The notes: a model not told the origin generated them from the sequence alone. Positions 1-61,845 are shown, numbered from the whole stretch's first letter. The stretch: DNA of 62,286 nucleotides, filler included, from Globobulimina sp. (GCA_003354225.1; 36 parts of 36 records of this genome joined end to end with filler, not necessarily neighbours in it), one strand, 5' to 3'. A program made the numbers and translations.

Positions 1-1635
1 CAAGGCACTTAGCCATCCACTAAATTTGTATTCAGGCCACCAGAAAACTCGTTGAAGATCAAATAGTCCCTTCTTTACCGCCAATTCTACTTCTGGATGT
101 TTTTGACTGAAGACATTTCGAAGAGCTTGTTTGTCTTGGTCGGCTGCAATCATGAACTTGACAATGCGGGGGTTCTCGAAGAAATCAACCCACTCAGGTG
201 CCATACTTCCAGTTCCGTCCGTTGGCTGCACGACAAAGGTAAGGCCGCCTGGCGCTGCCACTTGCATTGCTGCCATGTACGGACCTTTCTTGTCTTGTTT
301 TGAGTAGTCCATTCCAAGTCGATCGAATCTTCGTACTTCATGGATTGCTTTTCGAACATCCACAGACAGATTTTGTTGATTTCCGCTTCCGTCTTCTTCC
401 CGGTAGTCACCGCCTCTCTTATGTATCCCCCATCCACGTGGGTATCCCATATGTAATAAGAATGCTCTTTGCACTTCTTCTGGATGATCGAGAGCCGTGT
501 GATCCAAATCAAGTAAATAATTTCTAGCTCTATACAATCGACAAGGTTCCCATTTAGTATTCATAAATTCTCCATCAAATCCAACAAAAGAAAATTCCCC
601 ATCTCCAATCGTTTGTCCAATTGCTGCTCTGAGTGTAACTAAGCAGTCAGGACTGTTCATATCAGGAAAATGCAAAATCCTCTCAGTGTTGTTTGGGGGC
701 TGTAACAACAGTCTTATTGTAGCCCACCGAGCAGAACCGAGATTCATGTATGCTAATTGAAAGTCCTCTGCAACCCAATTAATGTCGAATAATCTCATTT
801 GCAAATTAGCTTGTTTAATCATATCAGGATGATTTAGATCTCTAATCTTGTTTGTAGCAATTACTCGGTCTGGTCCTTGAATAATAAATGGTGTTATTTC
901 ATCATTAAGTTGGCTAGGATCATATGAAAGTGGAAATGCTCGTAACATCGGATAATCTACCCATTTGCCTGGTTCGGTTGGCTCAAGTATTTGTCTTGCA
1001 TGTGCAGCTGCCATTCCTGTCCCCAAACATCTAGGCGTTGCTGTAATAGACACTGGATCCACAACATATCTTGAATTTGGATCATTAGGATCAGCCTTAA
1101 CATACACCACTGGCAATGGTGCAGGAAAAGTGTCCATATATCCTTGTGCTTCCAGAAAACAATGTCTTGAAGTCGTTGGTTTCATAAAGCCTTCCAATAT
1201 CACTCCAGGACCCAATTTCTTTTCCAATGGCTTCCAGATCTGTCTCATCAAATTGGCCGGTCTCGGCTTGACGAGCTCAGATAATCTGTCAGCAAATGCA
1301 GGTTTTTCTGGATGTAAATATTTCAATTGAGCTTCTGGTAACGGTTCTCTCCACAAAACGAAAGGTTCTTCTACAAAAGGCAATGGTTTAGCCCAAGCAT
1401 GATAATGACCACTATTTGACCTTGGTGGTGCTGTGGGTCGAGTTACTCTTCCGAATGTTAGTCCTCCATCTCCCACTGGTGGTTCATCAGTTGGTGGAAT
1501 AACCATCCGACGTGGAAGATATTTACTCCCTCCGACTGCTCCTTCTTCATCACTGTCATCACTAGAATCCGGAGATCGACGTCGAGATCCCGATGCTTTA
1601 TCCGTCTGGAGTACAAGAGGATCATCGTCGAGTTC
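1..1635 (-). CDS. Partial large protein with a DEDDy 3'-5' exonuclease domain (WRN/RNase D/Mut-7-like), open at both ends
   Basis: Manual translation gives 545 codons with no stop. Motifs: FVGFDGEF (ExoI), AAMQVAAPGGLTFVVQ, FFENPRIVKFMIAADQDKQAL (ExoII), GLFDLQ. Confidence 0.75.
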
Positions 1636-3374: not shown

Positions 3375-5224
3375 NNNNNNNNNNNNNNNNNNNNNNNNNN
3401 NNNNNNNNNNNNNNNNNNTTAATTAATTAANNNNNNNNNNNNNNNNNNNNNNNNNNNNNNNNNNNNNNNNNNNNACTAAACAGCACATACGGGAATAAGA
3501 ATGAACGTTATATAAACCAGCAGCAAGCTCAAGTCAAGTTTAAGATATCGATCTGTCGAGAAGCGACAGCAGAGACATGTCTAACGGGCAGGAAACAAAA
3601 CAAACAGCAAAACCGGTCCTGGCATTTACCAAGCATGTCGTCTGCACGACATTCCTCCCCCCATGAAATAAGTGGAAAACCACGAACCCATGGAAGTGGA
3701 ACACAGCTTAGGCGACAACTTGACAACTGACAGACAATATAAATACAAAAATACATCAATAACACATATTACAATAATTAAATAGGGGAAAAATACAAAA
3801 ATATCTAGCATTTACATATTACTGCACGACACAACAAAAAATGGTAATGTGCGAAAAACTGTTTTTGTTGCCTAAATTCAAAAATGAATTTTGAGTTTGT
3901 TAACATTTTACAAATTATACAATAATATATGGTCGTCCTTTAACAGTCCAATGGCCGCAGGCATTATCCAATGATGGTATACAAAATCCAACGTGATAAT
4001 ATCCAAATCCCTCCTCCCATGTGAAAAGTGAAAGGCCTAAAATAAACTAAATACATACAGGGGATTTAATTGAAACAAAAAAAACCTACTCTAAAAGAAA
4101 AACTATTGTATACAGATTAGTGGGTTATATGGTATGATAAAAATATTAAGCCACGCGTTACTGTGACAGCCATATTATTGATAAAAGGAGAATAATAAAC
4201 ACTACCTAAAATGCCGGGAAAAAAAAGCATATAATCAATAGTGAATCCAGGAGAATCGTCCAATCCATAGAAATAGAGAGCGTCCGGGGGTAGCAAAACA
4301 ATTCCGTCGGCACTGGCTGCACACATTCTGGGGCATCTCAGAATATACCAAATAGGTTCGAATGCTGACCAATTGCAATACCACACGTAGCCACAGATGG
4401 AAAAATCATATTTGAGTCTGTCATGGTTCATTAGATCGAATATACCATATCATGTTAACCAAAAGCAATTTTAGATCAATAATAAGAAATTCAAAAAGCG
4501 AAAGTATAGTAATTTTTAGACTTAAAAAACTATGGTAACCATATCTAGAAAGGGTCAAGTGTACATATAACGGTACAGTTAAAAAGCAACATAGGTACAT
4601 TACCAAAACAGGGGGATCCACTAAACTTACTGTATACCAGCGCTATTCAGACAGGATATCGACAAACCAACCAAGATGGGAAAATCGCACCATAATCCGT
4701 CAACCAAATTGTCAATACCATAACCACAACCAATCATCCATCTCCACTGTCCAGTAAGCAAAGGTTCCAGAGCCGAGAGGGCAACCCTTGTAATGATCCA
4801 TTTCTTTGAAAACGGCACAGTACAAATAGTATGTACAACAAGGACAAAAACGAGGACAGACAACATGCAAATAATTCTATCCATTATCACAAAAAGATGG
4901 GAAGAAAAAGTGCAAGCAAAACAGAGACACAAAAAAAACATCAAAATGCACAAAAACAGAGTATCAGCAAGCATATATTCATGGTCGAATAATATTCAGG
5001 ATCGAACTTCATAATTGTCCATTCCTATCAGGCTGCAGCTATTAATGATCTAAAATGCTGAAAATCGTGCAAAATACAAAGTTGCATGCAAACAAGATCG
5101 AAAATAATAGGNNNNNNNNNNNNNNNNNNNNNNNNNNNNNNNNNNNNNNNNNNNNTTAATTAATTAANNNNNNNNNNNNNNNNNNNNNNNNNNNNNNNNN
5201 NNNNNNNNNNNGATATATACACAA

Positions 5225-6848
5225 ATGTCGCACTCTAATTTTATATCAGATGATACACTAAAATTATCTGAAAACGTTGAATGTCAAAAAATGCTAAATA
5301 AATTAGGAGATAATTTCCCAGAAAGAGAGCAAATTGTATTATCCTTGGAATTAATAAAAATAAATAAAAGGGGCAGAGAACAAACACGCATATTATTATT
5401 AACAGATAAAGCTTTATACAATTTAAAACCGAAAGAATTAAAAAAATGTCAACGAAGAATCAGTATCGAAAAGATTGTATCCATAACAACCTCCACATCA
5501 TCGCCAGAATTCGCAATCCATATTCCAGATGAATATGATTATAGATATAAATCGCACAAATATAAAGACCGTATAATTGCTGTCTTATCAGAATTACATC
5601 GCAGAACAAGTGGTAAAAATATAAATATTAAAAAAATAAACACTGAGTCAACTGAACAATATATTGTCCCCAAAAATGCCGCCAGGATTTTAACGCGAGA
5701 ACAACGACTAAAACGTTATCGGGAATTAATCGGTAAAGATACCTACGAAGACGAACTAAATGATATCACCAACAGCAAAATTAAAATGGTACCCATTAAA
5801 GGAATGGATGCTATTAAAGTGAAACCGAATGATTTTGAGTTTTTAAGAGTAATCGGCCGTGGCTCATTTGGCAAAGTTATGCAAGTTAAAAAAAAAGATG
5901 ACGAGAAAATATATGCTATGAAAATCTTAAAAAAAAAGCAAATTATCGACACGAAGCAAGTGGGTCATACCAACGCTGAAAATAAAATATTACGCAGCTT
6001 ACAACATCCTTTTTTGATGCATTTACGCTTTGCTTTCCAGACAGACTCAAAGCTATATCTCGTATTGGATTATTATCGCGGCGGAGAACTATTTTTTCAT
6101 TTAAAAAACAAGCGAAGATTCAGTGAGCGACAGGGACAGTTTTTCGTGGCTGAGGTTGGTATGGCATTGGGCCATTTGCATAGTTTGGACTTTATTTATC
6201 GAGACTTGAAGCCGGAGAATATATTGCTAGATTGCAGCGGTCATATTTGTTTAACTGATTTTGGACTATCAAAGGATGTCAGTAACGGAGCGTTACATTC
6301 TTACTCTTTTTGTGGTACTCCGGAATACTTAGCCCCAGAGATAGTGTGCAGTTTAGGTCACGGCAAGCCAGTGGATTGGTGGGCGTTAGGTATATTATTA
6401 TACGAATTGACGGTTGGTATCCCTCCCTTTTATAGTACCAATGTGCATGAAATGTATAGGAAAATACAAGAAGCGCCGCTGCTGTTTCCTCCACATTTGT
6501 CAAATAAATGCAAGGATTTAGTGACAAAGTTGTTGGAAAGAAATGCGAAAAAAAGGTTAGGTGCTGGGAAAGGCTCATTTGATGATATACAGAAACATGC
6601 GTTTTTTAAAAATATTAATTGGAATAAATTGTATAATAAAGAGATTGAGCCACCGTATAAACCAAATGTGAAAGGAGATGATAAGTCAGTTCCGGAATGT
6701 TTTGATGATATATTTTTAAATGAAATAGTAAAGGATACGCCTGCTGTTGTTCCTGTTATTAGTACACAGAATAAAGTGAATAGTGATGAGGATGGAGATG
6801 GATTCATTGGATTTACGTATAAACCACAAACAGTTCTTGCACCGATGT
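5225..6848 (+). CDS. AGC Ser/Thr kinase (Akt/SGK/S6K-like) with N-terminal myosin-I TH1/PH-like domain
   Basis: GRGSFG, YAMK, YRDLKPEN, DFG, FCGTPEYLAPE and hydrophobic motif FIGFTY. N-terminus KINKRGREQTRILLLTDKALY...EYDYRY. Confidence 0.93.
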
Positions 6849-19007: not shown

Positions 19008-19187
19008 NNNNNNNNNNNNNNNNNNNNNNNNNNNNNNNNNNNNNNNNNNNNTTAATTAATTAANNNNNNNNNNNNNNNNNNNNNNNNNNNNNNNNNNNNN
19101 NNNNNNNAATGTACGGAAATATGGCGGTCAATGGTTTATGGGAATACATCCATTTAGAAACCCAAATATTCTACAAATTAAAACTTC

Positions 19188-20689
19188 ATGGCAGCACTTA
19201 CTAAAAGACTTAACTCGATAAGAAATGGCTCTTTTTCTTTGTTCAAGCCAAAACATGATATATCATACAATTGGATCCAAGCAGAAGAAAAGAAAAAGAT
19301 CGTGATACTAGGCAGTGGCTGGGCAGGTTACTCCTTTGCAAAGAATATAAACCGAGATCTGTATAATGTAACCATGGTATCACCAAGAAACCATTTTTTA
19401 TTTACACCCTTATTAGCATCCACCACAACGGGAACATTAGAATTCCGCTGCGTGACAGAGCCAGTTCGCAATTTGAACAAATTATCCTATCACCAATCCC
19501 GATGTATGGCAATAAATGCAGCAGAAAACAGCGTATTATTACGGGATTCGTTCGATACTTCGAATCTATATAATATACCATATGATTATTTAATATATGC
19601 AATTGGTGCACGCACAAACGATTTCGGTATCGCTGGCGTACGGAAACATGCATTGTTTTTAAAACAAGTACGCGACGCTATGAAAATCAGAGAGAAAATA
19701 CAAGAATTATTTGAGCGATGCAGCAAACCAACGACGACACGCGAAGAGAGAGACAAGTTATTGTCAATGGTGATTGTTGGTGGCGGTCCGACTTCAATTG
19801 AATATGCAGCGGAATTATATGATTGGTTAATGGAAGATGGTGCTAAAATGTTTCCCGATTTAATAGACACGTGTAATATTACATTATTAGAAGCCTCTGA
19901 CGACATTTTATCCGGTTTTGGTGCTGATTTAGCTCAGTATACAATTTCGAAATTCCGCAAACGAAAAATCAAAGTACGTACTACGTACTCACATTTTTCA
20001 CAGACTAGCGCAGTAAGCTTGAGTTTTTGCAAATTAATTGCCATGTCTACCTTTCTAAATTGTGTAAGGTTTTAACAAATAGCAGAGTTGTTGCGGTAGA
20101 AAAGGATTATGTCGAATTAGCAGACGGATATAAAATCACTTACGGACTGGTATTATGGGCCACTGGCATTATGTCGCAACCGTTGACTGATTCATTGTCT
20201 TTTGTTGAAAAATCAAAGTCTGGGAATGGCAGAATTATCGTGGATGAGTACTTAAAATGTAATGATAATATTTATTGTGTAGGTGATTGTGCAGAAACGG
20301 AGAGTATTGGCGCATTGCCGCCCACTGCGCAAGTCGCCCACCAGCAAGGCAAGTATTTAGCAAAGACATTCAATTATTTCTTGACAAAGCCATATGATGG
20401 GTTTGATGAAATATATTGCAATTATAATAAAACATTTAAGTACACATATAAGGGCACCATGGCATACATTGGATCGTGGCGCGGTGTCATAAATCTGCCG
20501 CATCATAATGATAGAGATACTAATACGAGCGAAATTAAAAAAAGATTGACCAGATTGCAAGGGATAAGAGCTTGGTTGTTTTGGAGATCTGCTTATTTCA
20601 CCATGTTAACAAGTACAGTGAATAGAATATTGGTTCCCATGTATTGGTTCAAAGCATGGATATTTGGAAGAGATTTCTCACGGTTTTAA
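19188..20689 (+). CDS. Type II (alternative) NADH:ubiquinone oxidoreductase, intron 19974-20068
   Basis: VILGSGWAG, SPRNHFLFTPLL, IVGGGPTSIE, GDCA..LPPTAQVAHQQG, WRSAY, IFGRD. Basic N-terminal presequence. Confidence 0.93.
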
Positions 20690-38351: not shown

Positions 38352-38383
38352 CGTCGGGAGTCCCGTGAGGCTTGCGGTTCTGC

Positions 38384-38740
38384 ATGTACGGTGACGATGC
38401 GAGGAGCTACTTGTTGGCCAAACCCGCGGCGACCGAAGGGACGCCTTTCGGTCCCGACGTTCTCGTCTACAAGGTAGCGGGCAAGATGTTCGCCACGCTG
38501 GGAGTGGACGGCGCTACGGAGACGGCACGCATGAATCTCAAGTGCGACCCGGATCGAGCCGAGGCTCTGAGAGCCGAGCATGAAACGATTCTTCCCGGCT
38601 ACCACATGAACAAGCGCCACTGGAACACGCTGGTACTCGACGGTCGGTTGCCCGCAGCCGTAGTGACGCAACTGATCGACCACTCTTACGAGTTGGTCGT
38701 TGCCCGGCTTCCCCGGGAGCTGCGATCGACTCTGACATCA
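38384..38740 (+). CDS. MmcQ/YjbR-family DNA-binding protein (bacterial), 3' end fused to AT-rich DNA
   Basis: PFGPDVLVYKVAGKMFA...NLKCDP...PGYHMNKRHWNT...IDHSYELV. Confidence 0.9.
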
Positions 38741-39017
38741 TGCGGATATTTTATCCATTCAATCCATTTATCCGTTGATTGATCATATTTGAGGAGTCCG
38801 GGATAGATATCCATATTGTAATCATTGTATGAATTGAGTGCAATGAAAAAGCCATCATAACTGCGAGAAAATAGTCTATTGAAAGATGTAGAATATGGAA
38901 TGTCATTAATGCCAAACAATTGGGTCCATTGTGACGGATTCATGACAGCAAACAGTTTTAATTTTTTCAAACGTTGGACCAAGAAAACCAAAATTAATTA
39001 TTTACACACACACAAAA

Positions 39018-39724
39018 TCAAAACGAACTCAATTGATGATTATATTCATACATATTAAATCCGCCCTTTTCCGCAGGTATTTGATTTTTAACATCTTGAG
39101 CAGGTTTATTTAAAAATTCTTGATCAACACAATAATGACCATTTTGTGTATTTGGTTGAAATACTGCATCGTATTCATGCTTTAATAATTTATTCCAATT
39201 TATAGATTTAAACAATTTATGCTTTTGTAATGCAGAAACACCTTTTTTTGATCCTAACCGTTTTGACGTATTTCTATTTAACAACAATTTAATAAAATCT
39301 TTCAATTCTTTTGAACCAAATTTATGATTAACATCTTTTTTATCAAATTTTAATTTTTCTTTTTTTATATTTGTATACATTTGGTTCACATTTTGATCAT
39401 AAAATGGTGGAATACCAAATACCAACTCATACAAAGTTGTGCCAATCGCCCAGAAATCAACAGGTTTCCCATACTGTTTCCCCTCAATCACTTCCGGTGC
39501 GAGATATTCTGGGACGCCACAAAATGTATTCGTTTGTAATGTTTGTCCCAATTGTTTGCCCAAAGTAAAATCGCAAAGTACGACATGTCCATTTGCTCGC
39601 AATAATATATTTTCTGGATATATTTGTCTATGTATTATGTTAAATGAATGTAAATGTCCCACTGCTAAAATTATTTCAGCGACTATAAATCGCGCGAGAT
39701 TCTCAGCAAATTTTGATTTTATTT
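39018..39724 (-). CDS. AGC-family pseudokinase, C-terminal part
   Basis: HRQIYPEN, CDFT, FCGVPEYLAPE, VDFWAIG, PPFYDQN. Confidence 0.85.
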
Positions 39725-40561: not shown

Positions 40562-41460
40562 CTACAATGGAGTGTCTGACATCCAAAATTGAAGCTGTGC
40601 TCCATTCATTATATACCTGCTATATATAAAAACGGTTCTTGTTTGAGCTCAACAACTTTGCCATTCACACTACAATTCACTATGTACACATTAGAGTCAG
40701 ATCCATTGTATACTTTGATATGAATATCTCCCTTTTCTCTGTGCAATATGACATCATTGAAAAATGGAGAGCCGAGCACATAGCTTCCATCTCCTGATCG
40801 AGGATAAAAGCCTAAGAATGCAAACACGGCCCAAGCACTCATGGTGCCATAATCATCATTGCCGGGAACTCCATCCGCCGTATTTGGGTATTTCAATTGC
40901 AACAACTTCCGCGAATATTTGGCCGTCAAATCTTGTCTATTTGCAGGAGGAAACGCAAACTGCCAAACAGAGAATAAGTCCTCTTCGTTGCCAGCCCAAT
41001 AATATGGATTCGGCATAAAATTATAGGGATCGACAAAAGATCTGTCAAAGAATTGTGTCAATTGCTCAACATAATAAGTTGTGTCCTTAAACAAGGAAAT
41101 CAATCCCGACACATCATGCGGAACAAAGAATCGATAGTGCCACGCATTGCCCTCAATATATTTACCATTTGTCAGTGACAATGGATCCATCGGACACAAC
41201 AAAGTTCCATTCTTATTCCTGGGACACATAAACTGTTTGTCTTTGCTCCACACATTCTTATAAAAGTTGCTTCGATTTAAAAACATTGCATAATCAGACG
41301 TTTTGTTCAAATGCTTTGCGACATTGGCAACAGCCCAATCATCATAGCAATACGCCAATGTATGGCAGGCGCCCTCCGACGTAGACTCATATGGAACATA
41401 TCCCAATTCAATATAGTCGGAAATATCAGTTCTTGCCGCATGTTGCTGTGGTTTGGTGGC
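40562..41460 (-). CDS. GH92 alpha-1,2-mannosidase, 3' part, with a 2-nt frameshift near the end
   Basis: TLAYCYDDW, YIEGNAWHYRFFVPHD, GNEED, PGNDDYGTMSAW, YVLGSPFF. Confidence 0.9.
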
Positions 41461-60651: not shown

Positions 60652-61845
60652 CTGCCCCCAATCCACACCGAATATTTCCTTTCTGGCGGAGCCACGATTT
60701 TAACCTTAATACTGGCCGGAGCCAAAGCGGTCATCTCTTTGGTTAAACGAACATCAATGCCGGGAAACATTGTCGTGCCGCCGGATAACACCGTATTGGT
60801 ATACAAATCTCGTCGAATATCCACATCGCATTTCATAATGGATTCATACGCCAATTTATGAATACCTTCACTCTCTTTGCCAATAAAAGCCGGTTTAAAT
60901 AATACTTCCGAACAACGAAATCTTTCCGCCCCGATTGTAATAACTTGGCCATCCGGCAACTCATAATTTTTCTCAATATCCGACGACGTTTCTGCTTTTT
61001 TTAATTCCTCATCATAATTTTCAGCAACATACGCCAATTTCTCTTTGATATCCCGCACAATCTCTCGTTCTGCAGAAGTCGTAAAGGAATAACCTCTCTC
61101 CGTCAAGATTTTCATTAAATAATCGGTTAAATCACGGCCTGCTAAATCCTAAAAAGCATAAAAAAATATATATATTTTAATGCGAATTTGCGTACGTAAA
61201 AAATATTTTGTTTAATAATGACATACCAATCGTAAAATAGCATGCGGCAAAGCATAACCTTCATAAATAGGCACGGTATGCGATACTCCATCACCGCAAT
61301 CTAATACCATGCCGGTGGTTCTTCCGGACGCATATAAACTTAATACAGCTTGGATACCAACATACATTGCCGGCACATTGAAGGTTTCGAACATAATTTG
61401 GGTCATTTTCTCACGATTTGCTTTGGGATTTAATGGAGCTTCGGTTAATAATACAGAGTGTTCTTCCGTTTCAATTCGTAATTCATTGCAGAATGTATGA
61501 TGCCAAATCTTCTCCATATCATCCCACGAGGTGACGATACCGTGTTCAATCGGATATTTTAAGGATAAGATACCTCGCTTGGATTGTGCTTCATCGCCAA
61601 CATAGGTATCTTTTTGCGCCATACCTTGCATTACACCTCGATGACGAGGTCTACCTACGATCGATGGAAAAACTACATATAAACATTTTGTTGTTGTATT
61701 ATAAAAAAAGTGAGAAAGCAAAAAAAATACCAGTTCTTGGTGCATCATCACCAGCAAATCCAGCTTTGACCATTCCAGAACCATTATCAACAACTAATGA
61801 TTGGACATCATCTTCACCACCATCACTATAATCAGTATCAGACAT
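60652..61845 (-). CDS. ACT: Actin with two introns, 3' partial
   Basis: [58 protein letters not shown]. Confidence 0.98.

Follow-up and report, generated by a model that had tools for sequence, protein, structure and literature searches.

What kind of gene is represented by the first contig of the stretch from Globobulimina sp. (GCA_003354225.1), and does it encode a nuclease of unfamiliar build? The window, that is, the whole stretch of 62,286 bases analysed, is made up of 36 contigs (1517-1637 nt each) with N44-TTAATTAATTAA-N44 spacers between them. A reading made from the sequence alone (the sequence-only reading) had described contig 1 (1..1637) as a hidden open reading frame (ORF) with a WRN/RNase D-type exonuclease split by an insertion of about 80 amino acids (aa), possibly from a virus, a mobile element or a second organism. 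With a probability of roughly 0.6, contig 1 is an internal fragment, about one quarter, of an intronless gene for a protein of about 2000 aa, which would belong to a small unnamed eukaryotic family and carry an RNase D-like split exonuclease. The domain itself is, from sequence comparison, very probably a diverged member of the DEDDy RNase D/WRN/Pol A-exo superfamily.

Contig 1 was occupied by a single minus-strand open frame (P0001; 545 codons, 1..1635, open at both ends), in agreement with the sequence-only reading. The frame was absent from the ORF list for one reason only, namely that it runs off both contig ends. A stop-free run of 545 codons would arise by chance with a probability of about 1e-14 (about 0.057 stops per random codon at the composition of contig 1; own arithmetic). 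Contig 1 has the N44 spacer on its right side; the first spacer occupies 1638-1737, and spacers repeat every ~1737 nt along the window. Because the window is made of joined contigs, gene order across it is uninformative on linkage.

The extent of the gene was seen from relatives of P0001. When 1.84 billion cluster representatives were searched in full with HMMER, nine relatives emerged, seven of them short fragments (108-226 aa) and the other two of 776 aa and 2640 aa (P0004). Residues 1011-1418 of P0004 aligned to residues 127-544 of P0001 (E 1.4e-29). Scanning metagenome contigs with the closest family members recovered one locus (L001; 7757 nt), whose ORF (P0011; 2039 aa) was complete, stop-bounded and intronless (~6.1 kb). 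P0011 was 54% identical to P0001 over P0001 residues 43-545, and P0001 corresponds to residues 162-675 of P0011. The description of contig 1 as a 545-codon ORF with a split exonuclease was thus sustained in its architecture, which is backed by profile evidence and by the insert in all four long relatives; as an ORF, the frame is only about a quarter of a ~2000-aa gene. For both ends of the gene and for ExoIII, which had been proposed for a search, the relative P0011 has counterparts, being complete and carrying ExoIII as YGGFD. When the window was searched by tblastn with P0011 and P0004, no further contig proved to carry a piece of the gene.

The exonuclease-like domain begins with a first helix and strand (P0001 residues 321-360; 556..675, minus strand), in which ExoI is present as D354-x-E356 within GFDGEF (residues 352-357; nt 565-582). 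After the ExoI strand comes a conserved insert, predicted to be mostly helical (residues 361-448; 292..555, minus strand), which precedes the next strand. The remainder (residues 449-545; 1..291, minus strand) comprises the GPYMAAMQVAAP strand with Q458 (MQVAAP begins at residue 457), then a further strand and a helix, and ENPRIVKFMIAADQD, the ExoII block, with D501 (residues 487-501; nt 133-177). ExoI and ExoII, which had been noted as looking intact, had D354, E356 and D501 all present. ExoIII is not on contig 1, which ends ~55 residues short of the Y-x3-D position in the relatives.

Several weak but independent lines agree with one another, and it is this agreement that leads to the DEDDy RNase D/WRN-type reading. 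ExoI D-x-E was kept in P0001, P0011, P0004 and P0008 (D-L-K in P0002), and D354 and E356 of P0001 aligned to D28 and E30 of RNase D (hhalign, insert removed). The ExoII Asp (D501 in IVKFMIAADQD) aligned to D85 of RNase D by both hmmsearch and hhalign, and its column was at least 90% invariant in the 10-row alignment, the only covering member without the Asp being P0007 (Gly). ExoIII appeared in the relatives as YGGFD (P0011), YGWLD (P0008), YAGMD (P0009) and YLNFE (P0004), with no Tyr in P0005. All of D-x-E, D and Y-x3-D were retained in P0011 and P0008 at ~25% identity.

No Pfam family other than PF01612 had matches in two or more members. PF01612 matched 3 of 10 alignment members and 4 of 8 pieces, and all its matches fell in one register, with the ExoII region at profile positions ~64-101 (E-values of pieces: P0009, 0.0013; core of P0008, 0.0035; P0010, 0.14; last 100 aa of P0001, 0.22). 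NCBIfam rnd was weakly matched by three of seven proteins (E 0.014-0.08). Among the language-model neighbours of P0011 residues 560-775, 29 of 30 were in the PF01612 set (score 0.91); the best three feature neighbours of P0001 among those shown also carried PF01612 (0.82), which alone is just a lead. A match of the A4 family profile to RNase D of E. coli was in register at ExoII (P ~2e-4 for one target). Removal of the insert columns gave an hhalign alignment to RNase D of 133 columns from ExoI to ExoIII (local score 34.9), and a probability of 81.5% over 196 columns in global mode. The insert-removed alignment was in register at DTEF, the LIQL strand, HAGSEDL, DTQ and DW..RPL..Q..YAAAD. The score was reached by 0 of 150 column shuffles in local mode (mean 14.4, maximum 27.2) and by 0 of 150 in global mode (mean 2.4, maximum 9.4). 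Predicted elements after the insert were, in order, strand, strand, helix, strand, ExoII helix, strand, helices and a long ExoIII helix, and the strand and helix order of RNase D-type domains is compatible with this.

Other results weigh against this assignment. The columns removed before hhalign were selected in knowledge of the hypothesis, and the template for RNase D, built from 80 close enterobacteria, was of low diversity (number of effective sequences, 1.7); with the full domain, hhalign against RNase D aligned the ExoII block only (P 5.7e-4, probability 29.5%). Scores stayed below curated cut-offs, both for PF01612 (best, 19.0 bits in P0009 vs. 23.6; P0001 piece, 11.8 bits) and for NCBIfam rnd (12-15 bits vs. 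299). Whole P0001 matched no Pfam family at E up to 10, and phmmer and profile searches of PDB sequences with P0001, A4, P0009, P0011, P0004 and A5 gave no exonuclease, with chance-level rows for KANK1, PP2A-B56 and Pf6r. One catalytic residue was lost in each of the short relatives P0002 (at ExoI), P0007 (at ExoII) and P0005 (at ExoIII), so activity would not be universal in the family. The AlphaFold2 model from 10 sequences was poor (predicted local distance difference test, pLDDT, 49.9; predicted template modelling score 0.45), as was the single-sequence model (34.7). Foldseek searches of PDB, VIA-wide and in a VIA second look gave no usable match with these low-pLDDT models and were uninformative; with models this poor, the fold searches say nothing on a DnaQ-like fold.

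The insert was evaluated by the spacing of conserved residues. E356 and Q458 are 102 residues apart in P0001 and E30 and Q45 are 15 apart in E. coli RNase D, which gives a net insert of ~87 aa, in line with the length first proposed. In each of the long members (4/4), an insert of 78-98 aa lay behind the ExoI strand and ahead of the strand that follows it. Parts of it were predicted to be helical (block-mean pLDDT 66-85, within the model of overall pLDDT 49.9). A split DEDDy architecture, in which the ExoI strand would be set apart from the next strand by a conserved insert, is supported by these sequence comparisons. Among the papers listed by word searches of the literature, none described a DEDDy domain carrying an insert behind ExoI within a giant protein, nor the giant family.

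Outside the exonuclease-like domain, P0001 begins with an acidic, Ser/Arg-rich low-complexity segment (residues 1-45; 1501..1635, minus strand; RRRSPDSSDDSDEE at residues 18-31), which is the tail of a longer disordered N-terminus in the relatives. A conserved family-specific region follows (residues 43-320; 676..1509, minus strand), which aligned to P0011, P0004, P0008 and P0002; its best-conserved block, NW.AED..LAY.NLGSARWA, lies immediately before the exonuclease domain. The ~350 aa ahead of the exonuclease had been left unrecognised, and residues 43-320 still matched relatives only and no known domain. By composition, P0011 has two apparently globular parts (~200-1200 and ~1600-1950); of the sequence around these, the N-terminus is acidic and Ser-rich, the middle rich in K/R/E/S and the tail rich in Gly/Ser/Arg. 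Two parts are common to P0011 and P0004, a long core (P0011 291-1074, P0004 1065-1865) and a C-terminal domain (P0011 1700-1934, P0004 2277-2504). The order in the family is a disordered acidic/basic N-terminus, the family-specific region of ~250 aa, the exonuclease-like domain of ~340 aa, a conserved region of ~300 aa, long K/R/E/S-rich disorder and the conserved C-terminal domain. Outside the exonuclease-like domain, the long relatives had no match in Pfam, NCBIfam, PHROGs or PDB sequences; PHROGs gave a single chance-level row, for P0010 only. A word-indexed homologue search found nothing past the known members. No family member has a functional name in the sources, the sole listed name being 'hypothetical protein', and the family seems to be rare in public data and tied to marine samples. 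The extra N-terminal 1000 aa of P0004 contain a loose repeat, DYEKYI...EW......W, seen by eye at least twice (~150-240 and ~520-720) and absent from P0011.

With E. coli RNase D (rnd) and PF01612 DEDDy domains, the family shares the ExoI D-x-E, the Gln strand, the ExoII hydrophobic strand with A-x-x-x-D, the D-x-Q strand, the W..P...Q..Y-x3-D block of ExoIII and the order of predicted strands and helices. It differs from them by the extra 78-98 aa after the ExoI strand, by the absence of an HRDC domain, by the position of the domain in mid-protein within 2000-2640 aa and by a similarity below curated cut-offs. WRN-exo, Mut-7 (EXD3), EXD1-2 and Rrp6 are of the same superfamily, with a eukaryotic and probably nuclear setting in common. 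None of these is known to have an insert after ExoI. Pfam found no second domain in P0011, P0004 or P0008; in particular, no MUT7-C, RecQ helicase, PMC2NT or HRDC domain was matched by P0011 (E up to 1) or by P0004 and P0008 (E up to 0.01). Since the relatives have no companion Pfam domain, they are not orthologues of EXD/Mut-7, WRN or Rrp6. PARN is a DEDDh nuclease with its catalytic domain interrupted by an R3H domain. Its DEDD domain is likewise split between ExoI and ExoII and so offers a precedent, but it belongs to another subfamily and has another insert, and no search showed a sequence relation of PARN to the family.

DEDDy exonuclease-like ORFs, also multi-copy and of unclear role, are described in bdelloid Juno/Vesta and Athena/Terminon elements (PMC5408684 and PMC6431247). 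A conservative D/E exchange in the DEDD motif, as in P0004, is reported for these bdelloid ORFs as well (PMC5408684, PMC6431247). The bdelloid ORFs adjoin gag/pol or the Athena reverse transcriptase and have strong HHpred homology (PMC5408684, PMC6431247), whereas here there was no reverse transcriptase or long terminal repeat (LTR) within 7.7 kb and the homology was remote; the comparison is one of published descriptions. If the split architecture is true, it is a new one in one of the best-studied nuclease superfamilies, with a conserved helical subdomain grafted directly after the ExoI strand, and it stands in a giant protein of which the remaining ~1700 residues resemble nothing known. The exonuclease domain would then be a defined enzyme entry point into an orphan giant protein. 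Overall, this is a moderately interesting remote-homology find, which overturns nothing known.

As to function, the domain would be a 3'-to-5' exonuclease of the two-metal type that works on single-stranded 3' ends. The metals and the attacking water would be positioned by D354/E356, D501 and the Tyr/Asp pair past the contig end. The insert may be an added subdomain that chooses substrate or partners. The protein might, more tentatively, be nuclear and act on RNA 3' ends, a role suggested by the RS/KE-rich and acidic Ser-rich regions and by a PRKRKV-like motif in P0011. For the natural activity, trimming of RNA 3' ends is a first guess, modelled on RNase D, Rrp6 and Mut-7.

Variants of contig 1 were found in sequencing runs. 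The run in which it was best represented had 25 Logan contigs matching contig 1 at identities of at least 80% (3 at 99% or more, 4 at 95-99%, 10 at 90-95% and 8 below 90%; 7 fit in part only), and a marine metagenome run had 8 (0, 2, 4 and 2 by the same identity classes), one of them of 216 nt without substitutions. The depth of Logan contigs is not readable as copy number. Two more runs of the same sample had no Logan contig on the stretch, which is no proof of absence, and there was no RNA run among the listed runs that contain contig 1. Indels among the variants preserved the frame: 6 nt were inserted behind 618, and the members of +1/-1 pairs stood 11-14 nt from each other. Among the 40 substitutions listed (200 more exist), 24 were at third codon positions (binomial P 5e-4), and 17 of 28 touched codons were synonymous among the listed substitutions, with no stop created. 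P0001 and P0011 differed by 0.36, 0.26 and 0.55 at codon positions 1, 2 and 3. Judged by these substitution patterns, the family is made up of several diverged coding variants apparently under purifying selection, which may be paralogues, element copies or strains.

At position 618, Logan contigs of both runs, one of them otherwise near-identical to contig 1, have 6 extra bases, and P0011 has two extra residues (AAIEAGQ vs. AAI--GQ). Contig 1 has either a two-codon deletion there or bases dropped in assembly.

The composition of contig 1 was compared with the rest of the window. Its GC content was 0.434, the second-highest of the 36 contigs (33 of the 35 others, 0.259-0.394; remaining two, 0.406 and 0.436), so that it is less AT-rich than most of the others, as first noticed. 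The surplus lay in codon positions 1 and 2 (0.57 and 0.42); GC at the third codon position (GC3) was 0.31, within the 0.20-0.45 of 17 other window ORFs. The fit of P0001 to a pooled window model of synonymous codons was 0.079 per codon (20 other ORFs, -0.307 to 0.264, with 3 lower). As GC3 and synonymous codon use are like those of the other window ORFs, composition is no sign of a foreign origin.

Two accounts other than an active exonuclease were considered for the domain. It could keep the exonuclease fold without catalysis and serve as a nucleic-acid-binding or scaffolding module, like the non-catalytic EXD1, Egalitarian and Maelstrom (in part after PMC5408684), which is unlikely. It would agree with the three short relatives that each lack one catalytic residue, with Glu for the ExoIII Asp in P0004, with the large insert beside the ExoI strand and with the embedding of the domain in a giant, largely disordered protein. 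Nevertheless, D-x-E, D and Y-x3-D are complete in P0011 and P0008, ExoI and ExoII are intact in P0001, the exchange of Asp for Glu is conservative, and those relatives that show losses are short fragments and possibly pseudogenes. That the likeness to exonucleases arose by chance, the region having another fold such as an ankyrin-like one, is very improbable: five motif blocks are ordered and in register with RNase D at a score that none of the 150 shuffles reached, Pfam, NCBIfam and language-model features converge independently on PF01612 and rnd, and no Ank family was matched at E up to 10. On the side of chance stand the curated cut-offs unreached, the lack of a structural match and the KANK1 ankyrin domain as the sole PDB sequence match (~50-80 residues; E 0.017-0.023). 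The likeness of residues 446-501 (133-300) to KANK1 ankyrin (PDB 7ddx) was limited to one repeat-like stretch with no Ank Pfam match and was put down to chance or convergence of the D.nG....h....IVK.L pattern.

For the gene as a whole, a diverged DEDDy exonuclease in a eukaryotic giant protein has to be weighed against other origins. It is possible, although on the unlikely side, that a selfish element or virus of the host carries the gene or gave rise to it, with the exonuclease as an accessory and not as an ordinary single-copy cellular gene. The lack of an intron in the ~6.1-kb ORF of L001 is consistent with this, as are the 25 Logan contigs in four identity classes with variants co-occurring in one sample, the decayed look of several short relatives at catalytic residues, the DEDDy ORFs of Juno/Vesta LTR retrotransposons and of Athena/Terminon elements (PMC5408684 and PMC6431247) and Nucleocytoviricota as the first-listed of three language-model neighbour clusters tied at 0.91. 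Conversely, P0011 had no reverse transcriptase, polymerase, helicase or zinc-knuckle motif, and P0004 had scattered short tri- and tetrapeptide matches only. A regex scan of P0011, P0004 and P0008 found no polymerase motifs A, B or C; P0011 and P0004 had no Walker A or DEAD motif; and Pfam gave no reverse transcriptase, polymerase, helicase, zinc-knuckle or capsid family in the long relatives. L001 had no long terminal direct or inverted repeats, no hammerhead or Rfam match at E up to 1 and no telomeric repeats, and its flank ORFs matched no Pfam family at E below 0.09; these flanks measure just 510 nt and 1127 nt, and a larger element could extend beyond them. No relative came up in IMG/VR scans with A3, P0004, P0008 and P0011, contig 1 resembles the other window ORFs in GC3 and in synonymous codons, and purifying selection on the variants also fits a cellular multigene family or several strains. 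None of the expected genes, repeats or viral relatives was found for the proposed viral or mobile origin, whereas the diverged coding variants in one sample speak for it. A further conjecture, which is unlikely, is that the giant intronless variant-rich ORFs mark an undescribed kind of selfish element of eukaryotes, or a gene derived from a virus, in marine protists. The split RNase D-like exonuclease would be its only recognisable enzyme and would serve the element's replication or interfere with small-RNA or RNA-decay pathways of the host, and the rest of the 2000-2600 aa would be new domains. Origin of contig 1 from a second organism in the sample (prey, symbiont or contaminant), and not from the genome of the other contigs, is quite improbable. 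The second-highest GC and a CpG observed/expected ratio of 0.68 (lowest but three) point to it, together with the near-identical pieces in the marine metagenome run, including the one of 216 nt with no other letters, and with a bacterial-type YjbR of deviant codon use on another contig, which shows that the assembly is not clean. Against this, GC3 and codon fit of contig 1 are inside the range of the other ORFs, and its GC surplus is due to amino-acid composition. An internal fragment of an intronless eukaryotic gene with a split RNase D-like exonuclease is the most probable reading of contig 1.

Other contigs of the window carried ordinary eukaryotic genes, including Tcf25, PPR, Kelch, IPT/TIG, RhoGAP, mitochondrial carriers and DHHC. 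Between the two ORFs of an actin gene (60654-61793, minus strand) lay ~66 nt (61149-61214) that are presumably a short intron; introns would accordingly occur in the host, whereas the 6.1-kb ORF on L001 has none. The YjbR ORF (38369-38779, plus strand; E 6.6e-33) lies on the contig at 38089-39724 (GC 0.436); it was the clear codon-use outlier of the window (-0.307 per codon) and adjoins a eukaryotic protein-kinase fragment (39021-39722, minus strand). This contig may be chimeric, a contaminant or the site of a transferred gene. An NDH2-type NADH dehydrogenase (19182-20686), an enzyme unusual for animals, occupied two overlapping plus-strand frames (19182-20072 and 20009-20686), which could reflect a frameshift or a short intron. 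In the ORF at 5213-6847, residues 10-137 form a myosin TH1 tail domain and residues 205-461 a complete protein kinase domain, two domains that are seldom joined. A fragment of glycoside hydrolase family 92, a family mostly bacterial and fungal, was found at 40612-41460 (E 6.8e-78).

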